Numbered from the stretch's first letter, positions 2,979-35,231 are shown. The stretch is DNA of 64,000 nt from Parcubacteria group bacterium (GCA_016181765.1 JACOYR010000004.1:35320-99319); one strand, 5' to 3'. The notes: generated from the sequence alone by a model not told the origin. Translations and numbers: made by a program.

Positions 2979-4886
2979 TTACTTTGTGAGCGTGATGGTG
3001 CGGTCGCGAGCCAGGTCCCACGCGCCCTGCACGCGGTTGCCTGATTCTTTATCCAGAACTTTTTGGGGTTCTCTCCGGTTGATGTTGAAAGGTACGGCGA
3101 GGTCAAGTTCTAATTGATGAGGAGTTGTTCCTCCCTGCTTTTGAATATACAGCGAGTATCGGCCCTCGGCAATGCGGCTCGCGAGTTCTTTCGGCAAGGT
3201 ATAGGTAAACGACAGAGTCTCCGAGGTGAGAGGCTCAATGGAAATGAACGTGCCGAACACAGTCTTTCCGTGCTCATCCGAAACCGCAACCGGCTCCTCG
3301 TTGCCCCGGGCCGCCACAAAGGTTGAGCCGCGGGGCACGTACAGCCGGGTGTAGGTCCGGTAGCGCGTGGTCTTCCAGTCAAAATCTCCGGTGTGCTCGT
3401 AGGTGACGGAAACCGTTGCGCTCATCTTCCCGTCCGCGCCCGGCGCTAATGCGTAGCTAATGGTTCGGTTGATGGCGGGATCGCTCTTGAGGCTGCCCAG
3501 ATTGGCATCAACCACGAAAAAGTAATCCCCGTCCGCGGGCGCCACCTGGCCCGCCCACTGCATGCTCTCTGCCAGGCGCTGCGCTACTTCGTCCTCAAAG
3601 TACACCAAGAGCTGCCGTTCGCCCAAAGCATCAAGCACAATGGGCACGAGCAAACGAAGCTGGTCCAGAGACATACTGAATACCTTTTCCTTGAGCTCGC
3701 GGGCCACGTCATCAATGATCTCCTTGCGGTTGTAGATGGTAATGCCCTCGCCCTTAAACCCAAGCTCAACGTGGTACGCGAGCTCATCAATCAGGTTTTG
3801 CGAAGTGAATTCCTTGCCGTTGACCGCAATCGGCCCGAGCACGCCCATCAATTCCTCCACAACCGTAGGGGTCAGAGCAATCACCCCGTCAAACCGAGAT
3901 ACCGGGCCGCGCTCATCTTTGTAAAACTGGATTGCGCGGGCCGCTGATGTGGGGAAATCCGGATCCCAGTTTGAATCCCTCAAAAACCACTGCGACTGCT
4001 TGATGTACCGCTGCAAGGGCGCGGGAGGGATCTTTTCGTTGTATGCTTTGGCCGGCTCATCCAGGTTATACACGTTGTCTGTGGTAAACGAAACCACGCC
4101 CGCGTTGCGGACCCGCAACACGCCGTACGTGCCAATGAACCCGCCGGTCGGCCGCAGCTCTGTATTATTCTGCAGGAGCAGGAGGTACGTCTTTTCGCCG
4201 GGGTACCCAAGCACGCGCGGGGCAGCCCCAATCCACGGGGACATGCGGTTAAACACGGTCTGGCCCGCCAAGAGCTTTTCCGAGAGCTGGTTTATTTTTG
4301 AATTTATTGATGAAAACCGCGTAGTGCGGCGCGCGTCTTCCAAAAACACCAGCGCCAAACCGGTCTGGTTGGCAACGCGCTCCCAAAGCACGGTTGAATC
4401 GCTTATCGCTTTCAAAAAAGCGGCTTTATCCTGCTCTGTAAGCTCGCTAAAAGAATTAACGCTCGTCTCTGACAACAGGGGCACTCCCTCTGCCCACAGG
4501 ATAACCGGCCGGGCAGACGCCAGCGAGAGCTTGCCCGCGGCGATGAGCGACCGGACGGACGCAGCTTCGTTTGAAACGAGCGGCAGGAGCGTAAATGGAT
4601 ACAGCTTGTCCAGGTCGCGCTCAAATTCGGAGAGATTGACTTCCGCCGCATCTAAAAGCGCTATGGTTCCCTGCCAGTCGCGGGCAGCTGCGGACGTTTT
4701 CAGGGGTTCCACCAGCCCGGCCATCTGCCGCGCATTACGGTATGCGTCTATCGCGAAATACCCGTAGTACACAACCAAAAACAGCGCAACCAGGCCCGCA
4801 GCCGCAATTCGCTGGTTTTTTTGGGGAACCAATTTCCGCATGCTCTCCCTGCTGAAATATGGCTTGAGGTCGGTAAGTTTAAGCAT
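2979..4886 (-). CDS. DUF4012-like membrane-anchored protein (cell-envelope / polysaccharide-cluster associated)
   Basis: 635 aa with an N-terminal TM helix. It contains the LLLQNNTELRPTGGFIGTYG block I associate with the DUF4012 family. It sits at the head of the glycosyltransferase cluster and overlaps the next GT2 gene by 8 nt. Confidence 0.6.
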   Translation of the reverse strand: MLKLTDLKPYFSRESMRKLVPQKNQRIAAAGLVALFLVVYYGYFAIDAYRNARQMAGLVEPLKTSAAARDWQGTIALLDAAEVNLSEFERDLDKLYPFTLLPLVSNEAASVRSLIAAGKLSLASARPVILWAEGVPLLSETSVNSFSELTEQDKAAFLKAISDSTVLWERVANQTGLALVFLEDARRTTRFSSINSKINQLSEKLLAGQTVFNRMSPWIGAAPRVLGYPGEKTYLLLLQNNTELRPTGGFIGTYGVLRVRNAGVVSFTTDNVYNLDEPAKAYNEKIPPAPLQRYIKQSQWFLRDSNWDPDFPTSAARAIQFYKDERGPVSRFDGVIALTPTVVEELMGVLGPIAVNGKEFTSQNLIDELAYHVELGFKGEGITIYNRKEIIDDVARELKEKVFSMSLDQLRLLVPIVLDALGERQLLVYFEDEVAQRLAESMQWAGQVAPADGDYFFVVDANLGSLKSDPAINRTISYALAPGADGKMSATVSVTYEHTGDFDWKTTRYRTYTRLYVPRGSTFVAARGNEEPVAVSDEHGKTVFGTFISIEPLTSETLSFTYTLPKELASRIAEGRYSLYIQKQGGTTPHQLELDLAVPFNINRREPQKVLDKESGNRVQGAWDLARDRTITLTK

Positions 4887-5715
4887 GGCGTTTTTCCGGC
4901 AGATTGAATCCCCACTTCCTAAAATATTTCAGGGCGCTCCCTAGATGTATCCAGGACATCTTGTTGAAGAACGATAAATAGAAATGGCTTGATACGGACG
5001 CGCGGCCGTGGTAGTGGATGATTTCCACATCCGAAAGGTACCGCACCTCAAAGCCTGCTTCCCAGAACCTGCGGCACCAGTCCGTGTCTTCCAGGAACAA
5101 AAAGAATCGCTCATCCATCAAGCCCACCTGTTTGATTGCCTCGCGCCGCGCGATCATGCACGAGCCCTGCACCCAGTCCACCTGCCGGTTGTCCGTGTGG
5201 TCCCAATCCATCATCAGGTACTTTTTGATTGCGCGCTGCGCGAACCCGAGCCGCGCAAGCGGCGTGCGGCGGTACATTAAAACCTGGGGCGAGGGGAAGC
5301 GGTACACAAAATACTGCAAGCTCCCGTCCGGCGAAAGCAATCGCGGACCCGCGATCCCGACGTTCGGGTTTGCGTCCATATAATCCGCCATTGCCTTGAG
5401 GGAGTTGTCCCAGATCACGATATCCGGATTCATGATGAGCGCATACCGCCCAGCCGAACGGCTGATGCCCAGATTATTGCCCGCGGAAAACCCCTTGTTC
5501 TCTTTAGACTCCAAAAGCTTGACCTGCGGAAACCGCGGCAAAATCTTTTCTTTGATATACGCAACCGACCCGTCCGTGGACGCGTTGTCCACGATGACAA
5601 TTTCATAATCAAGATCCGCGGTATGTTGAACCATGCCCTTGATGCAGGGCAGGAGGAAATCCTTGGTGTTGTAATTAAGTATGATGGCTGACAGGTCCAT
5701 ATTTTCGGATGTCAT
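4879..5715 (-). CDS. family 2 glycosyltransferase
   Basis: 278 aa. Motif EIVIVDNASTDGS, a DxD-type motif and GT2 length. The ATG at 5715..5713 lies inside a TGTCAT repeat element. Confidence 0.85.
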   Translation of the reverse strand: MTSENMDLSAIILNYNTKDFLLPCIKGMVQHTADLDYEIVIVDNASTDGSVAYIKEKILPRFPQVKLLESKENKGFSAGNNLGISRSAGRYALIMNPDIVIWDNSLKAMADYMDANPNVGIAGPRLLSPDGSLQYFVYRFPSPQVLMYRRTPLARLGFAQRAIKKYLMMDWDHTDNRQVDWVQGSCMIARREAIKQVGLMDERFFLFLEDTDWCRRFWEAGFEVRYLSDVEIIHYHGRASVSSHFYLSFFNKMSWIHLGSALKYFRKWGFNLPEKRHA

Positions 5716-5770
5716 TGCGAAGCGCCAATGAGGCGCTGAAGCAATCCTTGTCCCGAGCGAAGCGTGGGGA

Positions 5771-6655
5771 TTATCGTCGCAATAGGGGTACGTATATAAA
5801 TTTAAGCAGTTCGTACACGGCTACAAACGGCATGCGCCACCAGTCTCTCCATGAGAGATTTTTTTTGAGCATCAGCAAATGGTTCTTGTAACTCTCTTCT
5901 TTGGCCCAATCGTGCCGTGACTTCCTGTTACCTTTTGAGACCGCTCGTTGATGGAGAGCCATTGCTTTTATAGCTAGTCTTGATTCATAGCCCGTGCGAT
6001 TTAGCCGCCAGGCAAGGTCAGCGTCCTCTTTGTACATCCAAAACCTCTCGTCAAAGATGCCGTACTTATCTTTGGCTGATTCCAAGGCCGAAAGCCTATA
6101 AAGCGCGCATGCCCCGGACACGCCCCAGACCCTCTCTGTGGGCTCAAATTTTGCGTTTTCAAGCTTGTTTTCGCCAGTATTGGCCACCTGGCCCCAAGGC
6201 AGTATTTTAATGCCCAGTGAGTCAATTATGCCAGATTTTTGGCCAAAAGGCAATATTTTATAGGTTTTGGGGGCTACCGCGGCTATCCGACTTCCCCCCC
6301 CTGTAATCAGGGGGGGATTAAAGGGGGGGTCTGCCTCCATTTTAGCAACCATCTCCTTGAGGCACCCTTCTTGCAGTTCCACATCCGGATTCAACACTAA
6401 AACATACGGCGCTGCGCACTCCGCAAATCCTTGATTGTGCGCCCTTGCAAATCCCTTGTTGTCGTTATTGGTGATGACGCGAACTTCGGGATGATATTTT
6501 CGAACCCAATCAAGTGTCCCATCTGTTGATGCGTTGTCAATCACAAGAATATCAAAATCAACACCCTGCTGTTTTGCGATTCCCCTAAACAGGCGCTCAA
6601 GGTGTTCTTGCGAATTGTGTGTAACAATCTGGATTTGAACTTTCGGCATAATCAA
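5771..6655 (-). CDS. family 2 glycosyltransferase
   Basis: 294 aa with motif ILVIDNASTDGT. It contains an in-frame C8/G7 hairpin insertion encoding EADPPFNPPLITGGGS. Its ATG overlaps the hicA stop (ATGA). Confidence 0.85.
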   Translation of the reverse strand: MIMPKVQIQIVTHNSQEHLERLFRGIAKQQGVDFDILVIDNASTDGTLDWVRKYHPEVRVITNNDNKGFARAHNQGFAECAAPYVLVLNPDVELQEGCLKEMVAKMEADPPFNPPLITGGGSRIAAVAPKTYKILPFGQKSGIIDSLGIKILPWGQVANTGENKLENAKFEPTERVWGVSGACALYRLSALESAKDKYGIFDERFWMYKEDADLAWRLNRTGYESRLAIKAMALHQRAVSKGNRKSRHDWAKEESYKNHLLMLKKNLSWRDWWRMPFVAVYELLKFIYVPLLRR

Positions 6656-6879
6656 GAGTTAAGCAATTCAAAATACCGCTCCCTGCTCATGCCAGCGGTT
6701 TTGAGCAGGCCCTCTATGATATACACCGGAACCTGCCGATACATAGGGATGATGAGCGAACGCTTAGTGCCTGTCTTGTCATATACCAAATGGTCGCCCC
6801 TGGTTCTGATATGCGTGAAACCGTCCCGTACGAACACGTGCACCAGCTCCCTCCAATGTACCGGCGCCATCCTGGGCAT
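6652..6879 (-). CDS. hicA: HicA-family toxin (YcfA-like mRNA interferase)
   Basis: 75 aa. The sequence ELVHVFVRDGFTHIRTRGDHLVYDKTGTKRSLIIPMYRQVPVYIIEGLLKTAGMS matches the HicA/YcfA pattern (GSH-like RGDH, then PxH-type IP). Confidence 0.75.
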   Translation of the reverse strand: MPRMAPVHWRELVHVFVRDGFTHIRTRGDHLVYDKTGTKRSLIIPMYRQVPVYIIEGLLKTAGMSRERYFELLNS

Positions 6880-6882
6880 ACG

Positions 6883-7170
6883 CTAAATCGCCACGCTCAT
6901 CTTTTCGTGCTTGACAATCTCCGGAGGTTTCCACTCTTGATCGTACGTAAAACCCAGTTCTTCTAGTACATCCTTAGTCGTACCTTTACGTTCTGTCTCC
7001 TCGAAAAAAATCTCCGTGACTTCCTGTATATTTTTCCAGGCTTCCTCGACTGTATACCCGCACGACGAAAGCTGCAACAAAGGAATGTGTGCCACATACA
7101 TATCTCCTTCTTTCCAGATTTGGGTGTCCAGTTGCACAAATGATGACTGCATACGCCCACAGTATATCAA
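6883..7170 (-). CDS. hicB: HicB-family antitoxin (UPF0150-like N-terminal domain)
   Basis: 95 aa (or 89 aa from the second Met). It lies 3 nt upstream of hicA. The sequence YVAHIPLL..GYTVEEAWKNIQEVTEIFFEE is typical of HicB/UPF0150. It overlaps the 3' end of the Wzy-like gene by 4 nt. Confidence 0.7.
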   Translation of the reverse strand: MIYCGRMQSSFVQLDTQIWKEGDMYVAHIPLLQLSSCGYTVEEAWKNIQEVTEIFFEETERKGTTKDVLEELGFTYDQEWKPPEIVKHEKMSVAI

Positions 7171-8705
7171 GTATCCTGCTTTTTATCAACCAACCCCGTC
7201 ACCAACATCACGATGCTGATTCCTAAGGGATGGTTCAAGTACGGGCTTACGCCATGCGTGAGCACAACTGCAACAAGCCCGGCTAATGCGCCCAAGATGA
7301 AATAGTTCTTCTCGCGGCTCGCGATGCGCCAGCCGGACTTGAGGATGCGCCAGAGCAGATAGAGGTACGCGCCAACGCCGAGCAAGCCTATCTTCAGCCA
7401 CATCTCCAACCAGCCCAGTTCAAAGGCCGTAGTGGTGTAATTTCCGTCCGGATTATTTTTTAGCACGCGCGGGTCTTGGGATTGGTAGGTCACGCTGGTC
7501 CCGAATCCTGCGCCGAGCACCGGATGGTTCTTGATTGATTCAAGCAATGGTCGGATTTGCGCATAGCGGGACGAAACCGCTGCTTCGCCCGTGAATTTCC
7601 CGGCGCGGTTTTTTATGAGGTCAGCGTCCGCGTTGCTTGGCGGAATCGGGAACTGCATGGCAACCACGACAAGCCCTAAAGCCAATACGCCCGTGCCCGC
7701 GGTGATGGCGACAAAACGCCCGATGGTTTTGATGCGCTTGGGCATTATGACGAACAGCGCGATAATTAAAGCGACAAACGCAATAACCATTGCCAGCCAA
7801 AAACTGCGCGAAAAACTTGCAATGATGGCAGCCAAAGACAATACCAACAATCCAATAGTCATTGCGAGGCCATAGGCCGAAGCAATCTTATTGTCGCCAT
7901 AAGGCTTATTGCTTACATTAGGCTCCGTCTCGTTGTTAGGATTGCTTCGCTTCGCTCGCAATGACATAAAGAGAACACCGAGCAACATAAACACTCCGAA
8001 CACCAGCCAAATCTGGGACTGCATAAAGATGCGCGAGAGAATGGCAGTGGGATCCACGTTTGTAATTTCCGCAAGATGGCTGGCTCGCGACCATGCATAC
8101 AACACATCCTGCAATCCGAACAGTTCATGGCTGAAGATGTAAAACAAGATGACGGTCTTGGCCGCGAGGTATCCCATGGCCGCGGTTATGACAATGCCTA
8201 CGCGCCGCAGAGCGTCAGACGAAGAGAGCACATCATACATCGGAAATATCAAGGCAAAATATAAATAATTGTTGGCATCCGAAAAAACCAATCCCAGTTC
8301 ATTGCCGCGAAGTGCGCCCCATGCAATCCCCCAGCCGAGGATGACCGCAAGCGCCAAATAGGGTTTGAATAGTTTTGAATGTAAAAACTCAATCCTGCGC
8401 TTCTGCGCGGCGCGCGCTCCCCACGCCAGCATGACTGCAAGCCACAGCGCCATGCGGATTGACACCTCAAACCCGCCAATGGAAATTTCCAGCATCCTGC
8501 CGAATGAGCCAATCACCAGCTCACCAAAAACCAGCATCACCCCATGCTCAAGCCGGCGTATGGTCAAAACAATTGCGCTGACTGCAACAATGCCAAACAG
8601 CCACGCGCCTGTTTGCGGGGATGCGAATGACAGGAACGACAGCGCTTCAGCCAGAACTGCAAAAATGATTGAATATTTAAATAGAGTCATATGAGCGATT
8701 GTCAT
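7167..8705 (-). CDS. O-antigen ligase / Wzy-like polytopic membrane protein
   Basis: About 510 aa with at least 10 predicted TM helices and a large loop, as in the O-antigen ligase (Wzy_C) family. The upstream part of the ORF looks like non-coding extension. The start is uncertain (ATG 8705 or 8690). It contains an in-frame copy of the TGTCAT repeat, encoding RAKRSNPNNETEPNVSNKPYGDN. Confidence 0.65.
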   Translation of the reverse strand: MTIAHMTLFKYSIIFAVLAEALSFLSFASPQTGAWLFGIVAVSAIVLTIRRLEHGVMLVFGELVIGSFGRMLEISIGGFEVSIRMALWLAVMLAWGARAAQKRRIEFLHSKLFKPYLALAVILGWGIAWGALRGNELGLVFSDANNYLYFALIFPMYDVLSSSDALRRVGIVITAAMGYLAAKTVILFYIFSHELFGLQDVLYAWSRASHLAEITNVDPTAILSRIFMQSQIWLVFGVFMLLGVLFMSLRAKRSNPNNETEPNVSNKPYGDNKIASAYGLAMTIGLLVLSLAAIIASFSRSFWLAMVIAFVALIIALFVIMPKRIKTIGRFVAITAGTGVLALGLVVVAMQFPIPPSNADADLIKNRAGKFTGEAAVSSRYAQIRPLLESIKNHPVLGAGFGTSVTYQSQDPRVLKNNPDGNYTTTAFELGWLEMWLKIGLLGVGAYLYLLWRILKSGWRIASREKNYFILGALAGLVAVVLTHGVSPYLNHPLGISIVMLVTGLVDKKQDT

Positions 8706-8830
8706 TGCGAGGAGGCGTACTCGCCAACGAAGCAATCTTATCAGCGCGATGAGGAGGGTCATAGTAAAGACATACCTAAACGCGACGTTAAGTTTGCTTC
8801 GCCCTTGAGTACAGGGTCTCGCAATGACAA
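8700..8830. repeat. MITE-like element: two inverted ~38 nt TGTCATTGCGAG..GAAGCAATC units flanking a 54 nt core
   Basis: Left unit TGTCATTGCGAGGAGGCGTACTCGCCAACGAAGCAATC (8700-8737). Right unit in reverse orientation GTTTGCTTCGCCCTTGAGTACAGGGTCTCGCAATGACAA (8792-8830). Solo units at 5710-5747, 7939-7966 and 10889-10913. Confidence 0.6.
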
Positions 8831-8911
8831 TGGTATCATACCTTTTTTGGGCAAAAAAAACAGGGGGATCTCTCAAGACTATCCGAGAGTCCCCCTTGAT
8901 ACGCCGCAGGG

Positions 8912-9334
8912 CTACTTGCCCTTACTCCTCTTCTTTCCGCCTCCCTTGGACGCGATCAATCCTGCAATCCCACCCGTGATGGTTCCGGGTTTGGGATGGG
9001 CCTCGTCCTGCTGGGAGTGACTATGGGATGCGCCACTACCCTGCGATTTGGGCGACGGGGATGTTGGCTGTGCCCGCTTTGAACGGTCACTGGGCCGGCG
9101 CACCCTGGCCGTGTCATTCGGCGGGCCAAGCACGAGCTTCCACACCTGGACGTTGCCGCGGCCCAGACAGACCGTGCATTGGGGCGGCGCAAGCTGCAAG
9201 TCAACTTCAGCTTCATCCAGAACTGCCTGTACTTGCGGCCGCAACTTGGCGCACACCTTTTTGCACAAGCACTTGCCACTGCCTTTGCAGTGTTCACACA
9301 GCTTTGGCGTGGACACTGGTTGCCTGATTCTCAT
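8912..9334 (-). CDS. small DnaJ-type zinc-finger protein (two CxxCxGxG motifs) with C-terminal hydrophobic/poly-Lys tail
   Basis: Start ATG at 9334..9332 overlaps the stop of the upstream gene (ATGA). It carries CEHCKGSG and CTVCLGRG (canonical CxxCxGxG) plus CLCKKVC. The C-terminus is GGIAGLIASKGGGKKRSKGK. The region looks locally GC-rich. Confidence 0.55.
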   Translation of the reverse strand: MRIRQPVSTPKLCEHCKGSGKCLCKKVCAKLRPQVQAVLDEAEVDLQLAPPQCTVCLGRGNVQVWKLVLGPPNDTARVRRPSDRSKRAQPTSPSPKSQGSGASHSHSQQDEAHPKPGTITGGIAGLIASKGGGKKRSKGK

Positions 9335-10023
9335 CTCGCCGCCTCCCCATGCTCGCACAGACGCATGGTGGAAACCGCCTCCGCCTGCACAGCCTGTTTG
9401 ACGCACGGGAGAACGAGGCGAAGCCTGAACCTGGCGAACCACACGAAGCCGAACTCGAACCGGTCGACGTCCACGTAAAGCCTCTCGCGGTCGCCGAAGT
9501 AGAAGAAGGCGATGAAGAAGTTTCCTCCCGACTTGAAGAGAAAGAACGTCGCATGCCCGTCGGTGCGGAGCCAGCCGCGGTACTTCCTGATAAAGCCCAC
9601 AATCTGGCTCTGGGTCAGGCAGAGGCGGCCGGTATCAGCGGAGACCGAGCCGAACATCTGGCCGAACGTCGCGTCGCGAGCCAGTCTATAGACAGCAACC
9701 GGCGCGGCTGCTGTCGGGCCGCTCGCCTCGTTCGCACCCCAGTTGACGAAGTCCGGGTCAATGCCGCCGGTAAAAAGGTCCGTGGCGCCGGGGATGGTCT
9801 CCTGCCCGTCCGTCTCGTCTATGACGAGCGTCTTGCCGCCGGAGATGAGGCGGAGAATGGGCTCGACCCCCAATGACCCGAACCGGCCTTCGTGGAATGC
9901 CTGCAGGGCAGCGAGCGCCCGCTCCGGATCGTACGGATACTCATCCTGCCCGAGCTGGCGCAGGATTTCTCCGAGCCGCCTGCTTGCGGTTCTCTGCTGA
10001 TCGCCGGTGAGAATGTATCCCAC
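9331..10023 (-). CDS. hypothetical protein (no family recognised), first gene of a GC-rich two-gene cassette
   Basis: 230 aa. GTG start with a strong SD (GAGGGAGGA, 5 nt spacer). Translationally coupled to the zinc-finger gene downstream. Confidence 0.55.
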   Translation of the reverse strand: MGYILTGDQQRTASRRLGEILRQLGQDEYPYDPERALAALQAFHEGRFGSLGVEPILRLISGGKTLVIDETDGQETIPGATDLFTGGIDPDFVNWGANEASGPTAAAPVAVYRLARDATFGQMFGSVSADTGRLCLTQSQIVGFIRKYRGWLRTDGHATFFLFKSGGNFFIAFFYFGDRERLYVDVDRFEFGFVWFARFRLRLVLPCVKQAVQAEAVSTMRLCEHGEAAR

Positions 10024-10172
10024 GACAATCCTCCCTCTTGTAATGGCTTATACTCGCCAGCACCCCATGTGCCGACAAATACTCGCCGGTATGAAAAGAT
10101 CTACCACCCGTGAATAGCCACGGCGCTTCTGCCTCATTAATTGAGGCAATAATCTATAATACCACTTCCCCA

Positions 10173-11090
10173 CTACTTCGTCAAGTAGCGCCAGGCGCTA
10201 CGGAAAAACCACCACTGCTTTTGGACGGTTCCCGCCTGGCCGAATGACTGTCCTCCATGGTGGATGATGGACGTGCCGGGCCAGTACACTACTTTGAAGC
10301 CCGCACGCTTGGCGCGGCGGCAGAAATCAACCTCCTCAAACCAGATAAAGTACTTGTCATCCAGCGCTCCCACCCCCCCTTTGTCCCCCCCTCGGGCAGG
10401 GGGGGAAAGCTTTTCTATCGCACTGCGCCGGATGCACATAAACGCGCCCATGACCTGGTCCGCCTCTGACTCACGGGCATAGTCAAAATCTTTTGCCAGA
10501 TAATAATTCAACAAAGATGGAAACAGTTTGTACAGTTTGAAAAATATAATTGCGATGTCGCGCACACGCGGAAACCGCCGCACCGAGGGCTGGAGTGTGC
10601 CGTCCGGATTCAAGAGCTTGCATCCCAGAACGCCAATGGAGGTATCGCTCTCCATCTTATCAAACACCTTCTTGAGCGAGTTCTCGGTGAATTCGGTGTC
10701 CGGGTTCAGTAATAAAACATATTTCCCGGATGATTCTTTGATGGCGATATTGTTTGCCGCGGCAAAACCTAAATTTTTTGAATTACGAATCAGCTTGATT
10801 GTCATCCCGAGGGGGTATTCGCCCCCGAGGGATCCCTTGTACGTTCCATTTGCAGGCTGTAAGGGATTCCTCCACTCCGCTCGCCTTCGGCTCGCTTCGG
10901 TCGGAATGACATCAAAATTACTCTCCAGCATCTCCACTGTTCCATCGGATGACGCATTATCAACCACAATCACCTCAAAACCAACGCCTGCAGTATATGC
11001 ATATAAAGACTCCAGGCACTTCTCCAAAAGGCCTTTTACGTTCCAGGATATGATGATGACCGAGATATCCATACACCAGCACAGTAGCAT
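10173..11090 (-). CDS. family 2 glycosyltransferase (with two in-frame repeat-element insertions)
   Basis: 305 aa with motif EVIVVDNASSDGT and a DxD-like motif. The extra segments ASRRRAEWRNPLQPANGTYKGSLGGEYPLGMTI and SPPARGGDKGG are encoded by GC-hairpin/TGTCAT-like repeats. Confidence 0.8.
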   Translation of the reverse strand: MLLCWCMDISVIIISWNVKGLLEKCLESLYAYTAGVGFEVIVVDNASSDGTVEMLESNFDVIPTEASRRRAEWRNPLQPANGTYKGSLGGEYPLGMTIKLIRNSKNLGFAAANNIAIKESSGKYVLLLNPDTEFTENSLKKVFDKMESDTSIGVLGCKLLNPDGTLQPSVRRFPRVRDIAIIFFKLYKLFPSLLNYYLAKDFDYARESEADQVMGAFMCIRRSAIEKLSPPARGGDKGGVGALDDKYFIWFEEVDFCRRAKRAGFKVVYWPGTSIIHHGGQSFGQAGTVQKQWWFFRSAWRYLTK

Positions 11091-11412
11091 ATTTCGGGAA
11101 TAAAGGGCATTAACCCTATGTTAGCTCCTCGGCTCGGAAATGAAAAGAGTACTTTTCATTTCACTCGCTCTACGTCGCTAATAAAAAAAGAGGCCGCCCG
11201 GAAAATCCGACCGAGCGGCCCTGCCTCACCTTTCCAGGCTTCATCGCGTCACCGCGAGATCGCCGCAAGCGCGACGATGAGCAAGAGCACGGCCACAAAG
11301 AGAACACCAGTGCCGCCGTAATGGCAGAACCAGCTGTCCAGCCAGTTCCATATTCTGTCGCATTTTCTGCATTCCACGGCTCACCTCCGCCTTGTGGGCT
11401 AATAAGGAAACC

Positions 11413-12902: not shown

Positions 12903-13939
12903 ATTTCTGTTTTCTGATAACCGTTTTCTATCTGCGTAATAATTGCCTCCGCAATCTGCCCGATATTACCCGGCTCAACCAAAACGCCATTATCCCCCAC
13001 GGCCTCGGGCACGCCGCCCACGCGTGACCCTATGACGGGTTTATTAAACATCTGCGCTTCTTTGTACACAATGCCATAGCCCTCAAAATCATTGGGATCG
13101 TCTGTGGGGGTGAGTATAAAGCAATCGCAGGCCGAGAGCCAGGCATACTTCTCCTCATCGCTCACTTCGCCGGTGAACATAACGTGTCCGCCCCGGCTGG
13201 ACAGTTCCAGCTCCCGCCTCTCTGTTCCATCGCCGACCACCACGTACACGAGCTCCGGAACAATCTTCCAAACCTCGCGCAATGAGCGCAACACAACATC
13301 AATCCCCTTTCGCTTTACCAGGCGGCCGACCGAAAGCAGGATCGGCCGTGCGCCGAGCGCGTACTTTTGGCGGAGTTCGGCTGCATGCGCCCGGTAGCGG
13401 GCGGGGTCAACCTTCGGAACGCGCGGGTAAGAAACGCGCGCGCGTGAAGGGTCAATGCCGTATTTTAGAAGCAATTGGCTCGTTGCACGGCTGTTCGCAA
13501 TAATCTCGGAAGCTTCGCGCAGAATCCTTGATGCCCACCATCGCTTCCAGGCTGAACGCCGCGCCATCACCAAATCAAGGCCGTGCACGTACACGCGATA
13601 CGGAATTTTGAATCTCCACTTCCACCACAAGGCGGCATAGCCAATAGGCAGGATATGGGAAATCCAGAGATAATCAGGCCGACCACCCCCTAACCCCCTC
13701 CTGGATACAGGAGGGGGAATCGCGCGCCACAACAATGGCAGCCAGTGCGGCCACTTGTCCCAGAAATGCTCCTCGGCCCTCATGACCCGAACCAACTCGC
13801 GTGACGCGCCAACTTCGCCGGCGAGATAGGTCGCAACCCCGCCATATTTCGGGGCCCCCAGCGATTCCTGCGGAATCGTCTGGGGTAAACTCGGCGGGTA
13901 CTCAAGCGTGAGCAGCAAGGGATGTTTTCTGTTCGGCAT
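12899..13939 (-). CDS. GT4-family (GT-B fold) glycosyltransferase with two in-frame palindromic insertions
   Basis: C-terminal GT4 signature EGYGIVYKEAQMFNKPVIGSRVGGVPE. N-terminal EYPP..GGVATY motif is split by an inserted segment. A second insertion PPPVSRRGLGGGRPDY is encoded by a GC-hairpin element. Start taken at MPNRK (13939), ahead of the EYPP block. Confidence 0.8.
   Translation of the reverse strand: MPNRKHPLLLTLEYPPSLPQTIPQESLGAPKYGGVATYLAGEVGASRELVRVMRAEEHFWDKWPHWLPLLWRAIPPPVSRRGLGGGRPDYLWISHILPIGYAALWWKWRFKIPYRVYVHGLDLVMARRSAWKRWWASRILREASEIIANSRATSQLLLKYGIDPSRARVSYPRVPKVDPARYRAHAAELRQKYALGARPILLSVGRLVKRKGIDVVLRSLREVWKIVPELVYVVVGDGTERRELELSSRGGHVMFTGEVSDEEKYAWLSACDCFILTPTDDPNDFEGYGIVYKEAQMFNKPVIGSRVGGVPEAVGDNGVLVEPGNIGQIAEAIITQIENGYQKTEI
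13683..13719. repeat. GC-hairpin repeat element, copy inside the GT4 coding sequence
   Basis: CCACCCCCTAACCCCCTCCT-ggatac-AGGAGGGGGAA. Same family as the copies at 21065, 37428 and 37563. Confidence 0.7.
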
Positions 13940-21060: not shown

Positions 21061-21064
21061 AGTA

Positions 21065-21102
21065 CCACCCCCTTGCCCCCTCCTCATTAGAGGAGGGGGG
21101 AA
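21065..21102. repeat. GC-hairpin repeat element at the murC / CDP-alcohol-PT junction
   Basis: CCACCCCCTTGCCCCCTCCTC-atta-GAGGAGGGGGGAA. The first 22 nt are identical to the copy at 37563. Confidence 0.7.
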
Positions 21103-27865: not shown

Positions 27866-28015
27866 AAACTGCTATGATAGCGCATCATAGCGGTTGATGC
27901 AAGCAACCTAATACAATTACTTTGGGGAATGGCTGGTAATTCCGAAACAACGTTATTCCTTCCACTTAATGGAACACCCCATGGAGGGGGGTTTTGATTT
28001 GCACGAGCCTGAATT

Positions 28016-28882
28016 TCAGATATTTTTATTTCTGATCTGTCGCGCGTTCTTGCCGGTAATTGCGCTGTTTCCGGTTTTTTTCTCTATGGACTTTCGGGCC
28101 GCGCCAGCCACGCTCCCGCCTTCGCGCGCCACGGTTTTATTTTCATCCAAATTTTTCGGTTCTCTTTTTTCCGATATTTCAGTGGTCGCGGTTTCGGCAA
28201 GCATATTCAAAACCAATTCCAAATTAGTCATATTGTCCCGCAGATTTTCTTTTTTCAGCCCTTTGAGATTTTTATACTCCTTGGTGGTCAATCCGGCCCA
28301 TGCCCGGCTTATCTCATCGGTTAGAATTGCAAACTCCAGACCTTGTTTCATGCCCCGTTTTTCCCATTCATCAGTAAGCGCTTTGCGGATTTCAATGCTT
28401 TTGAGGCGCTGATTGACCCACTCCGGGCTGTATCCTTTTTGCAGGTATGTTTTTAAGGCACGATTAATGGCCAATTCGGGATCTGCTGTTTCTTCCAAGC
28501 GCTCATAGCCCACTTGCGCCAGCCAAAGCTTAAATGGTTCGGCATTTGGCGAAGGTATTGACTGGATGAGCCGGAGCATAACCTCTGTATCGGTGGCATC
28601 TGTGGCATAATATTTGCCATCTTTAGCCATAAATTTCAGTTCGTGACATTTTGTCACGGACTGACTACCTTCTTCTTTTAGTCTTTGTTTTAACTTTCTC
28701 CAATATGCCCCGGCATCAATACTGTTAGTTAACACTCTCACCACATCAATCACAGAAAAATACCAGAGTTCTTTTTCATCATCCCAGTGGCGGCGAATTT
28801 GATTGCCCTCAAAAAGCGCGATGGATTTATTTTTTGATTGTTTCTTTTCGTTGTTCATATATAATCCGTTGCCATTTTCCAT
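28016..28882 (-). CDS. Bro-N / KilA-N-like DNA-binding domain protein (DinD/antirepressor-like)
   Basis: 288 aa. The N-terminal block IALFEGNQIRRHWDDEKELWYFSVIDVVRVL fits the Bro-N pattern (F.G..IR...D.E.WF...DV...L). The rest is alpha-helical. Confidence 0.55.
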   Translation of the reverse strand: MENGNGLYMNNEKKQSKNKSIALFEGNQIRRHWDDEKELWYFSVIDVVRVLTNSIDAGAYWRKLKQRLKEEGSQSVTKCHELKFMAKDGKYYATDATDTEVMLRLIQSIPSPNAEPFKLWLAQVGYERLEETADPELAINRALKTYLQKGYSPEWVNQRLKSIEIRKALTDEWEKRGMKQGLEFAILTDEISRAWAGLTTKEYKNLKGLKKENLRDNMTNLELVLNMLAETATTEISEKREPKNLDENKTVAREGGSVAGAARKSIEKKTGNSAITGKNARQIRNKNI

Positions 28883-28890
28883 TCTATCTC

Positions 28891-29196
28891 TTATTTGACA
28901 AATTGACTACCAAAAGCCCTGTGCAATATAGATTGCTCCAAAGCCGCCAAATCATCACGGGTTGATTTTTGGTATTCCTTTAGCCGCCGAACCTTCTCGG
29001 CAAGCTGGTGAAATGGGATGGTGAAATGGGGACATGACCCATTTTTGATGACCCATATTTCCCGTTTCTGCGTGACCAGCCGGAAATGACTCAATCGGTT
29101 GTAGTAGCTCTTATAGGAATACGCGATGAACTCGCTTGCATAACTCACCCAACCAAGCCCTTCGCAAAATTTATTTCTTACCCTTGCCGAAAACAA
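28891..29196 (-). pseudogene. remnant of a type I restriction-modification S subunit (HsdS C-terminal fragment)
   Basis: 101 aa ORF whose end LAEKVRRLKEYQKSTRDDLAALEQSILHRAFGSQFVK resembles the conserved C-terminal helix of HsdS (..L..LKQSILQKAF.G..). No complete target-recognition domains and no hsdM or hsdR nearby. Confidence 0.35.
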
Positions 29197-29692
29197 AATC
29201 TAGAGTAGGATCTAATTCTTTTAATAATTTTTTATGTTCTTGGAGAATTTCTTCTTGAATTTTTATTGATTCAGCCATACACCAATCACGTATAAGTTCA
29301 TAATTTTTGTTTTCCTTGCAATCTTTAGCTATCCCCTTTCCTTCAACCTCTTCCTTCATCATGTTTATTGCGAGTATAGAGATACATGCTTTTTTATCAT
29401 CTATGTATTGAGATAGCCCTGTATAACCCACTATTAGGTCGCTAAAGTCATCTCCATGTTTTGAGAATATAATCGCTATTTTAATCGCTTCTTTAATTTC
29501 GTCTTTTGAATAAGGCAATATAGAAATTGGCGCTCCAAAAACCATATAAGCTGATTTTTCCATTATCTTCCCATAATCATTGATTATTTTTTCAGCTTCT
29601 TTGACATCCATAGAGGGGAGAAAAAAGGTTTCAGGAATTGTTTTTATTGAGGGAACGATGACCTTGGTGGCGGTGATGGTGGGTGGATTCAT
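29171..29692 (-). CDS. hypothetical protein (AT-rich island)
   Basis: About 173 aa from MNPPTIT. No recognisable domain. Codon usage matches the AT-rich island. Confidence 0.45.
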   Translation of the reverse strand: MNPPTITATKVIVPSIKTIPETFFLPSMDVKEAEKIINDYGKIMEKSAYMVFGAPISILPYSKDEIKEAIKIAIIFSKHGDDFSDLIVGYTGLSQYIDDKKACISILAINMMKEEVEGKGIAKDCKENKNYELIRDWCMAESIKIQEEILQEHKKLLKELDPTLDFVFGKGKK

Positions 29693-29705
29693 GTTGATAT
29701 AAGGC

Positions 29706-31043
29706 TCATCTAAACAAACTTTTGAACCAACTTTGAATTCTCGAAAAGAAAATAAAATTAAGTTTTGACTCCGTCGTTTTCTCATTGCTGGTTTCAAAAT
29801 CAGTAATAATATCTTCTACGACAAATTGATTAGTTGTATTTATTTCTTCTGCAGTCTGTTCTGGCTCAATCTGGACGCACGAATTACCAACTTCTCTATA
29901 CCCGTCATCACACAGCCACACATCTGTTAGGCTTTCTACAGCATGCGCATGTTCTGGAATTTGTATGCAATATTTTTTATTTAACGAAAGAGCATATCCT
30001 TCATTACAATGGATACTTGCTTCTTTTTCTTCCCTAACCACTTCGCTAGAAAGCACCCTAGCTCCTGTTTCATTCTCTGTAGTTGTAGCCTCTATACCGG
30101 GTTGAGTATTTGTAGATTTATCAATAGATGGCGTAGCTACCACAGGAGTAGTAGGAGTATCTTGTTCTACAGTGGCAGGAGAAGCAAAAATTGGTTCGCG
30201 TTGATTTTGTTTATCACTATTGAATAGATTAACCCTTGAATTAAGATTATTCAACAATTGCTCGTAAGAATTGTCTACTTCCTCTATGCACCTCTCATTT
30301 TCAAAAATATACCCATAGTCACACTCGCATGTTTTCGAAGAAGAATCGTAACTTGAATAATAACCATAATTATCATGGCAGTATGAATCACCATCTACAC
30401 AGGTTTGCCCCCCAAATAAATTCGTATCCAGAACATACCCTCTGCCACACTTACAACTATCGGTTAAAATATCGTGTTCAGCATTCCATCCCAGCAACTC
30501 TTGACAATAATCATCTCGCGACACACACTTCCCGCCATTCAAAATATAGCCATAACTACATTTACACGAACTAGTCAGGGAGTTATAACTTGAATTATAG
30601 CCATACAAATTCCTACAATAGGTATTGCCAGAAACACATTCCTTATCACCAAAAATATTCGTATCCACTACATAGCTATAATTACACTCACATCCACCAG
30701 ACAACGAATCATATGAAGAGTTTAAAGGACACGAAGGCCTAGAAGGAATTGAGGGGGTTAGGAAATCGTAATTCAATGAAGGATATGTGTAATCAGGCGC
30801 TGGGGTGGTATAGCCAGTACCACCATCGCCCCAATGGCTATGTATAGGATCAGATGGTTGTGGTAATCCTTTATTGTTATGACAGTGGTACTCGCCATAA
30901 GACAACCCCCAAGAACTGCAGTTCGTTCTACAAGTATGGCAACCCGAGCCATCAGTGCCCCCGGGATGAGCGAAAGTAGAATCCGATAATCCAAATATGA
31001 CAAAGGTTGCCCCCAGTAGTATGAAAAAAAATCTAAGGCGCAT
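29706..31043 (-). CDS. secreted protein with N-terminal His/Cys-rich module and four tandem ~40 aa Cys-rich repeats
   Basis: 445 aa. Signal peptide MRLRFFFILLGATFVIFGLSDSTFA. N-terminal module HPGGTDGSGCHTCRTNCSSWGLSYGEYHCH. Four repeats of the form C(E/K)CxYGYxL..xxCVxxDxYC. A Thr/Pro-rich linker and an acidic C-terminal domain follow. Confidence 0.6.
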   Translation of the reverse strand: MRLRFFFILLGATFVIFGLSDSTFAHPGGTDGSGCHTCRTNCSSWGLSYGEYHCHNNKGLPQPSDPIHSHWGDGGTGYTTPAPDYTYPSLNYDFLTPSIPSRPSCPLNSSYDSLSGGCECNYSYVVDTNIFGDKECVSGNTYCRNLYGYNSSYNSLTSSCKCSYGYILNGGKCVSRDDYCQELLGWNAEHDILTDSCKCGRGYVLDTNLFGGQTCVDGDSYCHDNYGYYSSYDSSSKTCECDYGYIFENERCIEEVDNSYEQLLNNLNSRVNLFNSDKQNQREPIFASPATVEQDTPTTPVVATPSIDKSTNTQPGIEATTTENETGARVLSSEVVREEKEASIHCNEGYALSLNKKYCIQIPEHAHAVESLTDVWLCDDGYREVGNSCVQIEPEQTAEEINTTNQFVVEDIITDFETSNEKTTESKLNFIFFSRIQSWFKSLFR

Positions 31044-31070
31044 AATCTAATAGTGAGTCGGAAAACCTAT

Positions 31071-32537
31071 CTAAAGTTCCCATTTAAAGTAACGATTCAC
31101 CGCATATTCAACGCCTACGCGGAAACGATTAGTGCGCTTATCATTCTCAATTTCATGAATTTCCCGATCTAGCGCATCAATTTCTGATTTAACGCGATTT
31201 TTTTCTTTTTCTTTCATCTCATGATAACGCCTATCTATATCGCCAATACTTTCTTTAAGGACTTTCTCGTTCTGTGTAATTAGAGCATCCTTCCTTGTAT
31301 GAATATTTGTTATGTCTGTCTTTGTAGTTCTCACTTGGTTAAAAATTTTTTTTAAATGAGAATGTAGCCGCTTTACCGTGGGAGATGAGACAAAAAGGCC
31401 TTCAAATGGCTTTATTGCTGTACGCGATATCAACTCAATGATGAATAACACTAAACACACCAACCATTTAATTCCATATGTAATACTGCCGAGGAATGAT
31501 TTGATCGTCCTCCAAACAAGGCTCCACTCGGTATGGCTCAAAAATAATGCGGCAAGAAAACCAACCCCAAAAAATAGGGCTATATATACAAGGTCACTAA
31601 AATTTTCGTTTATATTTTCACGGCGATAAAAGTACAAAGAAACTGGAATACTTATAAGTGTAACAATACCTATCAATAGCGCTATTGCCTCAAACAACTT
31701 TTTCAATAAACTAGGACACGACTTGTGGTTGTGAAAAAATTTTACACCCTCAAAAGCGAAAACCATAATAACCATAAAAGCAATTGTAAATTGGATCAGA
31801 CTTATCCCGTCACCACGGTTCCACACGGGGATTGCGTCTATATTGAGTCGTGAGCTAATGTAATAATCTACAATGAGCAACACAATAAAAATCACAATTG
31901 GCCACCAATGCGCAACAGCACTAAATCCATCAAGCGATGTAGTTAATTTATCGTGCGTGTCCAATAGCCATTTTTTTGATGCTACTGTGATTGGATTTTT
32001 TCTTGCCTTTTGCTTCTCTTCTCTGTACTCCTTTTCCGCATCAAGAAGCGCAATAGTTAATCTTTCTTTTTCTGATTCAAATTTTGTCAATTTCTCAACC
32101 AAGCTCTGCAGTTCTATATCAAGTTTTTGAATTTCATTCTCCAAAGATTGCTTAAAATTGTTTAAATGTTTTTCTGCGTACTCGTGTTCATTTTTTAAAT
32201 TTTGCTCAAGACGCGCGACAAACTCTTTGCGTTCTTCTTCTAATTTAGTTTTTTTTAATCTCAATATTTCAATACGCTCCTGCATATTCGTCATAAATTT
32301 CGGCTTCGGAACACTATCCCAAATTCTGGACTTAGCTATGCCATGCTGTTTGTCTAGTGGCTCATTTTTAAACGAAGTATCAATTTCATTAAGAATACGA
32401 CGATTCAAATTCTTAGTAGCGATTCTGCCAACATTAACGCCGCGACCGAAACGGCTTGTATAGTACACAATAGTGGCCAGTAATGCAGCCCCTCCAATAC
32501 CCGGCACTGCGATTGCGATGATTTGCCAGTAATTCAT
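31071..32537 (-). CDS. membrane protein with flanking coiled-coil regions (unknown function)
   Basis: 488 aa. N-terminal TM, long heptad-like KE-rich helix, four central TM helices and a C-terminal coiled coil. No family recognised. Confidence 0.5.
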   Translation of the reverse strand: MNYWQIIAIAVPGIGGAALLATIVYYTSRFGRGVNVGRIATKNLNRRILNEIDTSFKNEPLDKQHGIAKSRIWDSVPKPKFMTNMQERIEILRLKKTKLEEERKEFVARLEQNLKNEHEYAEKHLNNFKQSLENEIQKLDIELQSLVEKLTKFESEKERLTIALLDAEKEYREEKQKARKNPITVASKKWLLDTHDKLTTSLDGFSAVAHWWPIVIFIVLLIVDYYISSRLNIDAIPVWNRGDGISLIQFTIAFMVIMVFAFEGVKFFHNHKSCPSLLKKLFEAIALLIGIVTLISIPVSLYFYRRENINENFSDLVYIALFFGVGFLAALFLSHTEWSLVWRTIKSFLGSITYGIKWLVCLVLFIIELISRTAIKPFEGLFVSSPTVKRLHSHLKKIFNQVRTTKTDITNIHTRKDALITQNEKVLKESIGDIDRRYHEMKEKEKNRVKSEIDALDREIHEIENDKRTNRFRVGVEYAVNRYFKWEL

Positions 32538-32541
32538 ATAG

Positions 32542-33918
32542 TTATCTACAAAGATGATTTAAATAAATACTGCGTTTAATTTGTGCGAAGCTCTCATCTT
32601 CGTCCTCATTCTTAAAAAGTTTAATACAAGCGTTAGAAGAGATAACAGCATTAAAAGTCGCGCCAATATCACTAATATACCGTTGAGGGCAAACGAGCGA
32701 AATATTGTAGAGAGGGTATTTCACCCTGGCTTCTTCTTGTGCTATTTCTGAATCAATCTCCTGGTGCTCTGTAATGTATTTTCTCTGTTGAGCGCTATTA
32801 TTATTATTCTGCTGTTGAAAATATGCCCCACAATCTTGCAAAAATTTCGCGTATGAATCTGATTCTATTTGGTATGTATTTTTCCAACCATATGTTTTAG
32901 GAAGACCAGTCATCGTGCCAGCAGTAACAATAACAACTTTATCATCCGACTCTTTCATAGAACTTAAATTCTCAACAGAAGGATCAAGGTAAAGCTTTTG
33001 TTGTGTGAACCAATCTTTAAAAGTATTTTGTAACACATCAGTCTCGTGCCAAGTACAACTAAATTTATCATTATTTTTAATGTCGCAAGTATGCTCTTTA
33101 ACAGTAGTTATATAAAGCACTTCAGTTTTTCGAGAATCGTCTCTTTCTTTTGCCATTCTAAAAATTGGGTATGATCGTTTTAACTCCAAAGTTAGTGTGC
33201 TGCCGTTTTCGGCTTTTGTTTCAAACTGCAAAGTGTCGCTGGAAGGAAGTTCTGATATGTATCCATTCACAATTCGAGTTATTTCTTTAATGTCATTTGA
33301 AGTAGTGGGCGCAAGAACCAACTTTGTTGTTGTGTTTGAATTTGTAAGTGTGGTAGTAAATGGGGGTTGTAATTCGGTATCTTCCCCTTCAATTTTTTGA
33401 CGCAGTTCAACCCAAACCTGTGGAGTAATCACTTCAGAATATCCATCCGCAATAAACTTAACTTTGTTTGCGATAGGATCAATCTCAAATGACTTTTTGA
33501 AATCCAGATTTTTCTGTTTATTGAGTATTGCGCTCCATACGCCAGGAGATTCTTGATCTCTTGCTTCATAAGGAAGAATAATAAGACAATAATCATCCAC
33601 ATCTGCACCCCTGAAAGTAAAAGCCGTATTGCCTTCTTTTTGATTACAAATAGAATCGAGAGGAGGAGGGTCCACAATCTTAAACATCCCAAACACAATC
33701 CCAGCCACAATCAAAATAATTACAGTAGCAACAATAATCGTTTCCTGTGTATCCTTGCGCTCTTTTAATCTATCACTCCCTGGCGGGACCTGTGGGTGTG
33801 TATCCATCATAGGAAGTAACGTTATCTCCTCTAGCCGTTGTTTCTCAATTTCTTTTCCACAGTTAGGACAAAAATTGTCTTTCTCTTTAAGTTGTTCTCC
33901 GCACTTACTGCAATACAT
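32542..33918 (-). CDS. zinc-ribbon / single-pass membrane protein with large extracytoplasmic domain (unknown function)
   Basis: 458 aa. N-terminus MYCSKCGEQLKEKDNFCPNCG (CxxC..CxxC zinc ribbon), one TM helix (IIVATVIILIVAGIVFGMF), then a roughly 370 aa Ser/Thr/Asn-rich ectodomain. Confidence 0.5.
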   Translation of the reverse strand: MYCSKCGEQLKEKDNFCPNCGKEIEKQRLEEITLLPMMDTHPQVPPGSDRLKERKDTQETIIVATVIILIVAGIVFGMFKIVDPPPLDSICNQKEGNTAFTFRGADVDDYCLIILPYEARDQESPGVWSAILNKQKNLDFKKSFEIDPIANKVKFIADGYSEVITPQVWVELRQKIEGEDTELQPPFTTTLTNSNTTTKLVLAPTTSNDIKEITRIVNGYISELPSSDTLQFETKAENGSTLTLELKRSYPIFRMAKERDDSRKTEVLYITTVKEHTCDIKNNDKFSCTWHETDVLQNTFKDWFTQQKLYLDPSVENLSSMKESDDKVVIVTAGTMTGLPKTYGWKNTYQIESDSYAKFLQDCGAYFQQQNNNNSAQQRKYITEHQEIDSEIAQEEARVKYPLYNISLVCPQRYISDIGATFNAVISSNACIKLFKNEDEDESFAQIKRSIYLNHLCR

Positions 33919-33944
33919 ATCCGAACCATAGCTAAATAAGCTTA

Positions 33945-34175: not shown

Positions 34176-34197
34176 ATAATTTAGTTTAATGCCAAAT

Positions 34198-35091: not shown

Positions 35092-35231
35092 AAAATTTTA
35101 TGGTTGTTATAAGGATATATGGCCTAACGTTTCGGCATATGATGCTGTATGAGCAATACGGGTGGAGTGAAGCGGAACCGCATACACGCCGTTGTACGAT
35201 GTAATGAAAAAAGTTTTAATTTCTAGTGCAA

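Follow-up and report, generated by a model that had tools for sequence, protein, structure and literature searches.

Probable CGTC-tagged REP sequences between and within glycosylation genes of a Parcubacteria bacterium

Palindromic repeats lie between and inside the glycosylation genes of a 64,000-nucleotide stretch from a Parcubacteria group bacterium (GCA_016181765.1 JACOYR010000004.1:35320-99319; the whole stretch is called the window here), which raises the question of what these repeats are and whether they serve the genes beside them. The genes concerned encode three glycosyltransferases, here GT2a, GT2b and GT2c, and a Wzy-like membrane protein (Table 1). A first-pass annotation made from the sequence had described a repeat family placed exactly at the starts of polysaccharide genes, reminiscent of the JUMPstart/ops leaders. 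We consider it likely that the repeats belong instead to the CGTC-tagged superfamily of repetitive extragenic palindromic (REP) sequences, which are short non-autonomous palindromic repeats; the assignment was made on described features, not on a consensus. The repeat is, in our assessment, ordinary selfish-type DNA of a published class and not a special gene-start signal.

Positions 5710-10911 hold seven clear repeat units and one degenerate unit, and no unit lies elsewhere in the 64 kb. With their four-base tags outward, six of the units form three inverted doublets (7857-7966, 8698-8831 and 10800-10911); the remainder are a solo unit and an adjoining remnant (5710-5771). The exact 11-mer GTCATTGCGAG occurs in the window at 7858(+), 7955(-), 8701(+) and 8818(-), while the copy at 5711(+) departs from it by one mismatch; this compares with an arithmetical expectation of about 0.03 exact matches on both strands of 64 kb; every copy is followed 6-20 nt later by GAAGCAATC or GAAGCAAAC. 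The proposal of a second dispersed repeat family is supported. Outside 5.7-10.9 kb, a search allowing up to two mismatches gave nothing above chance (30 matches against 21 expected). Rfam covariance models did not match the window at gathering score, nor 5500-11200 at E ≤ 5, and the window holds no tRNA genes.

No inverted repeat in the window is longer than the pair 8698-8754 / 8775-8831, and the whole of 8698-8831, with its 54-nt spacer, is predicted to fold into a single hairpin (-62.8 kcal/mol, z = -9.7), in agreement with the earlier description of a pair at 8700/8792 resembling a MITE (miniature inverted-repeat transposable element). Predicted folds of the two intragenic doublets reach z of about -4, and that of the solo unit, whose upper stem is GCGCC/GGCGC, -18 kcal/mol (z = -3.2). 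Two further copies had been described as degenerate solos, a description that did not survive. The copy at 7939-7966 has perfect termini, and that at 10889-10913 is the end of unit 10863-10911; their partners, 7857-7889 and 10800-10836, had been overlooked, so that halves of doublets were taken for solos. We regard 5749-5771 as a degenerate unit tentatively, since its fold is not significant; it is missing from two related loci (L122 and L123).

Each window unit consists of a (T/A)GTC tag, a 5-bp stem starting with AT, GA(G), a variable GC-rich hairpin, (C)GAA, the stem partner, and a C followed by two bases. The tag is TGTC in six units (the remnant at 5749 counted) and AGTC in one; the tails CCT, CTT and CCC share the leading C and differ from CCA in other bases. 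Family-wide, the unit has an unpaired (C/T)GTC tag, an AT-first base stem, a GA/GAA internal loop and a tail starting with C, and its termini can be written as ATTGCGAG...GAAGCAAT. Within 2.05 Mb of fetched loci, stem triplets other than TGC had a fully complementary partner in 41 of 72 cases, compared with 7.5 when partners were shuffled; the complementary variants were TCT/AGA, TCC/GGA, CCC/GGG and CCT/AGG. Covariation is thus seen in the stems against an invariant tag and GA/GAA loop, and it includes the upper stems, which vary between copies yet remain paired. A hammerhead-like or K-turn reading of the GA/GAA loop was rejected on misfit of topology and the lack of an Rfam match. As read from the conserved termini, a unit is free of stop codons in five of its six reading frames, so that in-frame survivors are easy to obtain and call for no functional selection.

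This anatomy can be compared with the CGTC-tagged REP superfamily as defined by Di Nocera, De Gregorio & Rocco (2013, BMC Genomics 14:522, PMC3733652). The accessible text of that study describes an 8-9 bp stem with complementary A/T at its first two positions and complementary stem variants, a 4-5 nt loop, and a short unpaired 3' tail that is mostly CCA. The published elements occur predominantly as head-to-head (HH) dimers, with tags outside and spacers of 20-100 bp that are often conserved; they lie between same-direction and convergent genes and also inside open reading frames (ORFs), including in frame, are present in several phyla, and have no associated transposase (PMC3733652). The CGTC/TGTC tag, the covarying AT-first stems, the C-leading tail, the HH doublets and the lack of a linked transposase are shared by the repeats studied here, and the window copies likewise lie in gaps between co-oriented genes or, in frame, within them. 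No matching strings were found in the supplements of PMC3733652, the consensus sequences being given in its Figure 2. Literature searches for the DNA or peptide strings of the repeat, or for in-frame palindromic repeats in the candidate phyla radiation, returned nothing relevant.

Two of the classes named in the accessible text of PMC3733652 are known under older names, Neisseria dRS3 and Rickettsia conorii RPE-6 being CGTC-1 and RPE-4 being CGTC-4. By description, the Rickettsia palindromic elements (RPEs) RPE-4 and RPE-6 resemble our units in being palindromic, translated in frame in coding genes, and without a known transposase; the host here is unlike theirs, a small-genome, groundwater-type Parcubacteria bacterium whose glycosylation enzymes are the targets, whereas known RPEs come from an alphaproteobacterium that lives inside cells. 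The dRS3 repeat is ATTCCC-N8-GGGAAT; unit 10863-10911 and a unit of the related locus L121 (GTCATTCCCGCGG...) share the ATTCC(C)/GGAAT base stem, which in them follows a GTC tag. Neisseria units are short, lie in large intergenic arrays and are integration sites for a prophage. Unlike dRS3 and the Neisseria intergenic mosaic elements (NIMEs), the window units showed neither large arrays nor a role in prophage integration. Classical MITEs combine terminal inverted repeats with a target-site duplication and derive from a DDE insertion sequence; the window doublets have inverted ends. They resemble the REP doublets forming hairpins (REPINs) of REPIN-RAYT systems, in which inverted units and spacer form one hairpin that is present or absent at orthologous sites without target-site duplications; they differ in carrying CGTC/TGTC in place of the GTAG tag that a RAYT cleaves and in having no RAYT/HUH gene beside about 430 units listed in the searches that follow.

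To follow the element outside the window, species-representative genomes and IMG/VR viral contigs were searched with the pattern GTCATTGCGAG-N(3-30)-GAAGCAATC, and metagenome contigs with a Parcubacteria-type tail added to the pattern. The same termini were matched in at least 120 contigs of each collection (genome, viral and metagenome), across many phyla; a search of related genomes had been among the checks proposed by the first-pass annotation. All counts that follow refer to the matches listed. The genomes included Bradyrhizobium, Sphingomonas, Micavibrio, Pedobacter, Mucilaginibacter, Chloroflexi, Nostoc, Zixibacteria, Planctomycetes, Helicobacter, Sporomusa and Patescibacteria; CGTC REPs have been reported from the first three (PMC3733652, accessible text). 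The commonest units were GTCATTGCGAG-CGAAGC-GAAGCAATC-CAG and a form with a 12-nt loop. Among the 120 genome loci, the base before GTC was C in 106 units, T in 57, A in 6 and G in 2, and the tail was CCA in 80 of 171. Doublets were predominantly HH (31, against 4 tail-to-tail and 3 head-to-tail in genomes, and 42, 2 and 1 respectively in metagenomes), and 82 of 121 Parcubacteria-type metagenome units lay in doublets with tags outward. Spacer classes of 17 and 54 nt recurred in metagenomes, the 54-nt spacers being partly palindromic.

We then clustered the ORFs within 600-1500 nt of about 430 listed units. No protein family was recurrent beside the units at 240 loci, and no HUH/Y1-like neighbour was seen at these; the clusters near units comprised ABC ATPases, methyltransferases, proteins common to viral contigs and spurious translations of the repeat. 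A linked GIY-YIG, RAYT or other gene was accordingly rejected, the ORFs near the 430 or so units belonging to generic families only. ORFs with units on both sides were all different. One Patescibacteria contig (L050) carries between two CGTC doublets, at 556-1838, an IS256-like insertion sequence (IS; Transposase_mut) with inverted repeats of its own, TAATTAGTACCCTAATGG, and may represent an IS that landed in a REP cluster. Several IMG/VR contigs (L127, L139, L160 and L170) carry 3-6 units, all on a single strand, between genes and at N-termini, and one of them has a tandem array of four. These multi-unit viral contigs indicate that CGTC units are common on phage-like DNA.

Copies inside genes were analysed by alignment of homologues, which bore out the claim that the Wzy-like and GT2 proteins contain in-frame extra loops. 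Among 18 aligned Wzy-like sequences, the window protein and P0001 and P0003 (69-72% identical) have MSLR...KQS...KIAS...LAMT at the insertion site, P0002 has one unit and part of the spacer, and P0004-P0006 (55-59% identical) have no insertion; comparison of the DNA identified the extra segments as the doublet. The minus-strand translation of this 110-nt doublet reads ...MSLRAKRSNPNNETEPNVSNKPYGDNKIASAYGLAMT.... The corresponding site of GT2c is uninterrupted (...NFP-x-VKLI...) in 16 of 23 homologues. In the window it holds 32 residues between VIP and GMT, the doublet being translated in frame as VIPTEASRRRAEWRNPLQPANGTYKGSLGGEYPLGMT and splitting the Pfam GT2 match in two. A different doublet occupies the site in L121, and L122 has only the 17-nt palindrome GTCATTCCCGGGATGAC (VIPGMT), in which the outer doublet ends are joined. 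Because 16 of the 23 homologues have no palindrome there, this 17-mer is best read, from its sequence, as the remnant of a doublet after internal deletion. In the AlphaFold model of GT2c (mean pLDDT 87.7), only residues 61-90, the insert (pLDDT 49-69), and 221-240, a poly-G hairpin insert of another family, are of low confidence. Of the units, 15-24% were spanned by long open frames, a figure to be taken as an upper bound because GC-rich DNA yields long spurious ORFs.

Parcubacteria homologues of 7167-8690 and 10173-11072 carry many other lineage-specific, in-frame segments derived from repeats, among them HPDRAYSRVEGS, RHSEAKPKNL...FASAQDDG, HPNPLPxGEG, PLAPSLVKEG and FPFLYQGGGKGV. From these sequences, in-frame colonisation by hairpin repeats seems common in the glycosylation proteins of these Parcubacteria.

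Comparison of the window with three syntenic loci (L121, L122 and L123) and further homologues revealed changes in occupancy. Among these four syntenic loci the doublet 8698-8831 is present in the window only, and its spacer is 80% identical to that of a copy inside the Wzy gene of L121 and 65% identical to that of the window's own Wzy copy. At the GT2c site, homologues have a mixed-subtype doublet, a different doublet, the 17-nt palindromic remnant, or nothing. In the window the solo unit lies in a 70-nt gap that separates GT2b (stop 5771-5773) from GT2a (start 5700); across the orthologues compared, this junction holds nothing, a solo ATTGC unit, an ATCCC dimer (as in L367), or both types; a location after the stop codon in a same-direction gene pair is usual for REPs (PMC3733652, accessible text). 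Junction units in L122 and L123/L368 have different, compensated upper stems. Among the window, L121, L122 and L123, the flanking genes are 42-69% identical at fourfold-degenerate sites; the 20 bases of the unit termini are nevertheless identical, and the upper stems are wholly different. The identical termini at the GT2b/GT2a junction had suggested purifying selection on an ancient copy. Further orthologues showed the junction occupants to be varied, which weakened that reading and marked the junction as a turnover hot spot.

GT2c is 92-97% identical to its element-free homologue L365 in the first 120 nt or so and about 87-93% in the 3' third, and just upstream of the doublet is 62% identical to L365 and about 82% to L122; by sequence comparison, GT2c is a recombinant mosaic. 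GT2b ends in ...YVPLLRR* in element-bearing genomes and in ...AIFETRNLKAY... in the element-free L366, L369 and L370, where a longer GT2b overlaps or approaches GT2a. The tail CTATTGCGACGATAA may be a decayed left unit that supplies the last codons and the stop. Together, these comparisons speak for a REPIN-like doublet of roughly 110-135 nt that is still being gained, replaced, partly deleted and exchanged between alleles.

The idea that the TGTCAT end of the element provides start codons was not supported. In-frame ATGs are indeed present at 5715, where the element ATG would extend GT2a by MTSEN, and at 8705, but the starts conserved in orthologues lie 15 nt downstream of each, at 5700 (MDLS...) and 8690 (MTLF...), and the database protein for GT2a, P0241, begins at ATG 5700. 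Read in gene orientation, the junction in L122 and L123/L368 runs stop, unit, ATGACA, 6-7 nt and ATGGA(C/T)CT (MDLS...); the window differs in having a remnant unit after the GT2b stop and 9 nt from ATGACA to the start, the order being otherwise unchanged. The element ATG is out of frame with GT2a in L123, and the element-free L366, L369 and L370 start GT2a at the same ATGGA(T/G)CT codon. ATG 8705 is base-paired within the stem of the hairpin predicted for 8698-8831. Only two of the four repeat loci adjoin gene starts.

Upstream of Wzy, the window, L121, L122 and L123 share a terminator-like hairpin with a T-run, followed by the -10-like sequence GGTATGAT; a promoter and terminator scan of the window found nothing above shuffles and missed this conserved hairpin. 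In L122 (4720-4790) and L123 (730-760) the Wzy ATG follows GGTATGAT after six bases, which suggests from sequence layout a leaderless Wzy mRNA; the window alone has a 134-nt doublet between GGTATGAT and ATG 8690, which would interrupt this arrangement, and its MTLF start matches that of L122.

Several features weigh against this reading or differ from the published description of the CGTC-tagged superfamily. Whereas the published format is a stem of 8-9 bp with a loop of 4-5 nt, which only unit 7938-7966 approaches, most window units have longer, GA/GAA-interrupted stems with a variable upper hairpin; in the accessible text, deviant loops are noted for Bradyrhizobium CGTC-1 and some paired bases are drawn as loop, and Parcubacteria (Patescibacteria) are not among the taxa it names (PMC3733652). 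The window tag is mostly TGTC and the tail CTT or CCT. All window units lie within one gene cluster, in a 5.2-kb stretch, unlike a freely dispersing element. There was no mobilising enzyme near the units at the 240 loci, so we infer mobility from presence/absence patterns only, and the mosaic structure of GT2c means that some of these differences may reflect exchange of alleles and not transposition. Neither a target-site duplication nor a target motif could be defined; the three doublets showed no duplication, nor did filled sites when set against empty ones, and no parent IS was seen. Identity of the 20-nt termini in spite of 42-69% fourfold-site identity could reflect host selection on the termini.

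The host might instead keep the hairpins as RNA structures that, once transcribed, stabilise, process or uncouple the mRNAs of the glycosylation operon, a role proposed for many REPs, and the covarying stems, the invariant termini beside synonymous sites near saturation, and the solo unit straight after the GT2b stop in L122 and L123/L368 (a remnant intervenes in the window) all speak for this; the accessible REP literature also favours same-direction intergenic sites and transcription of the repeats (PMC3733652). We nevertheless find this explanation improbable, since three orthologous clusters are element-free at the GT2b/GT2a junction and another has a different subtype there, the same units occur in coding sequences, where ribosomes would unwind hairpins, solo units have no orientation bias relative to flanking genes (29 same, 31 opposite in the three sets of listed matches), and no U-tract is present. 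A JUMPstart/ops-like leader or a gene-start module supplying the start codon would account for the two in-frame ATGs, for two copies within 15 nt of gene starts, and for the L122 GT2a that the gene caller began at the element ATG. This proposal is largely refuted, and we give it very little credence: the conserved starts are the downstream ATGs, shared by element-free orthologues; in L123 the element ATG does not share the frame of the gene, and at 8705 it is paired in the predicted stem; and the ops octamer GGCGGTAG is missing from the cluster, its only window matches, at 22852 and 40282, being a chance-level count. The element also lies beside unrelated genes in many phyla and viral contigs. 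With JUMPstart/ops it shares only a polysaccharide/glycosylation neighbourhood, and it differs in being palindromic, multi-copy and intragenic too, without a fixed leader place and also found outside polysaccharide loci.

Growth in place, by which palindromic seeds are expanded or perfected through template switching or slippage and resemble one another through a shared mutational mechanism, could explain why upper stems at orthologous sites are wholly different yet paired, why some upper regions are (GCGAA)n-like and differ in repeat number, and why L122 has a mere 17-nt palindrome at the GT2c site. It leaves unexplained the 20 identical terminal bases across phyla and a 54-nt spacer that is 80% identical between unrelated sites of different genomes, and 16 of 23 GT2c homologues have no palindrome at the site, which makes the 17-mer more probably a deletion remnant; we judge growth in place, too, very unlikely. 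Selection of the inserted peptides as functional modules of the Wzy-like and GT2 proteins is scarcely credible. The insertions are in frame and stop-free in several related genomes, but their sequence is not conserved, the frame of the Wzy spacer in the window differs from that in L121 and L123, L122 has lost most of the insertion from both proteins, the GT2c segment has low model confidence and lies outside the part of the protein that is modelled well, and the five stop-free frames allow survival without functional selection.

For CGTC-tagged REPs, we propose that the element would spread as a single-stranded DNA hairpin, by analogy with GTAG REPs, on which RAYT and IS200/IS605 HUH/Y1 transposases act; these enzymes recognise a 5' tetranucleotide and an imperfect hairpin (PMC3733652, accessible text). 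By the same analogy, a trans-acting enzyme coded elsewhere, in the genome or on a phage, would recognise the tag and the mismatched stem. Alternatively, host replication or repair and allelic recombination might suffice without a dedicated mobiliser. Doublets recur whole, with a 54-nt spacer included, at unrelated sites as well as in other genomes, and copies would in addition pass between alleles by homologous recombination, with phage-like contigs as possible vehicles. Copies persist in short intergenic gaps and, in frame and without stops, in stretches that homologues lack. Effects on the host would be by-products: an intercistronic mRNA hairpin, a structured 5' leader before Wzy, two proteins longer by about 35 residues, and ORF calls extended by an ATG. 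Of these, the mRNA hairpin after GT2b and the structured Wzy leader are possible host-level effects, to judge from the predicted folds. Present-day activity of CGTC REPs in Parcubacteria populations, with phage-like contigs as carriers, is conceivable, though we lean against it; if it holds, the hot-spot turnover would give a small-genome system for identifying the mobilising activity.

These results add a Parcubacteria (Patescibacteria) genome, and viral contigs as well, to the places where the CGTC REP class occurs, and extend the in-frame colonisation of proteins, familiar from Rickettsia, to Parcubacteria glycosylation enzymes. In the window and its relatives, filled, empty and remnant sites can in a few cases be compared cleanly, and their reduced genomes narrow the list of candidates for the CGTC REP mobiliser, an open question (PMC3733652). 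For annotation, the units create spurious short ORFs (..CHCE..EAI.., ..SLR..KQS.., ..LLRFARND.., ..LAMT..), their ATGAC end lengthens N-termini, and Pfam matches are split, as in GT2c; recognising CGTC units guards against over-interpretation.

Table 1. Repeat units, genes and associated features in the analysed part of the window.
Feature	Position	Strand	Description
Solo unit	5710-5748	+	TGTC tag, stem ATTGC/GCAAT, GA/GAA loop, tail CCT
Degenerate unit (tentative), ATCCC/GGGAT subtype	5749-5771	+	TGTC-CCGAGCGAAGCGTGGGGAT; in tandem with solo unit, abuts GT2b stop
Unit, half of intra-Wzy doublet	7857-7889	+	AGTC tag, upper stem GGCC/GGCC, predicted fold z = -2.9
Shortest unit, other half of intra-Wzy doublet	7938-7966	-	TGTCATTGCGAGCGAAGCGAAGCAATCCT
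Intergenic doublet	8698-8831	both	Units 8700-8739(+) and 8790-8829(-), 54-nt partly palindromic spacer
Mixed-subtype doublet in GT2c	10800-10911	both	10800-10836(+), ATCCC/GGGAT; 10863-10911(-), ATTCC/GGAAT
Terminator-like hairpin with T-run, then GGTATGAT (-10-like)	8895-8853, then 8840-8835	-	From four-locus comparison
DUF4012 protein	2979-4886	-	Pfam
GT2a glycosyltransferase	4879-5700	-	Conserved start ATG 5700; database protein P0241, 273 aa
GT2b glycosyltransferase	5771-6649	-	C-terminus PLLRR* (CTATTGCGACGATAA)
HicA and HicB-like protein	6652-7170	-	Between GT2b and Wzy
Wzy_C membrane protein, O-antigen ligase/polymerase-like	7167-8690	-	Conserved start ATG 8690; carries doublet
Two overlapping ORFs	8912-10023	-	176 aa (Cys-rich, CxxC motifs) and 230 aa; no Pfam match
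GT2c glycosyltransferase	10173-11072	-	Carries doublet and poly-G hairpin insertion 10370-10405

Every gene of this stretch lies on the minus strand, and more glycosyltransferases and a Polysacc_synt flippase-like protein carry the cluster on to 15.4 kb. P0121, from a Parcubacteria metagenome-assembled genome, is 100% identical to GT2c, as is P0241 to GT2a, and the close homologues are all from Parcubacteria or Patescibacteria. The pair between GT2b and Wzy consists of a HicA toxin and a weak HicB-like antitoxin; HicA also adjoins GT2b in L366, and L123/L368 is without the pair, GT2b following directly after Wzy. Upstream of Wzy, L121, L122 and L123 have similarly placed ORFs that, like those of the window, have no Pfam match.

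Further along the window, 28000-38000 is a low-GC island (37-42%, against about 57%) of probably acquired DNA, whose products are a Bro-N domain protein, zinc-ribbon proteins, a staphylococcal-nuclease/Excalibur protein, a DUF6804 protein and unknowns. The island is edged near 37.4-37.6 kb by poly-G hairpin repeats. These belong to a separate poly-G/poly-C hairpin family (CCCCC...loop...GGGGG), with copies at 6296-6330, 10370-10405, 13679-13720, 21061-21102, 37424-37465 and 37557-37598, and this family is also translated in frame, as PPFNPPLITGGGS in GT2b and SPPARGGDKGGVG in GT2c.

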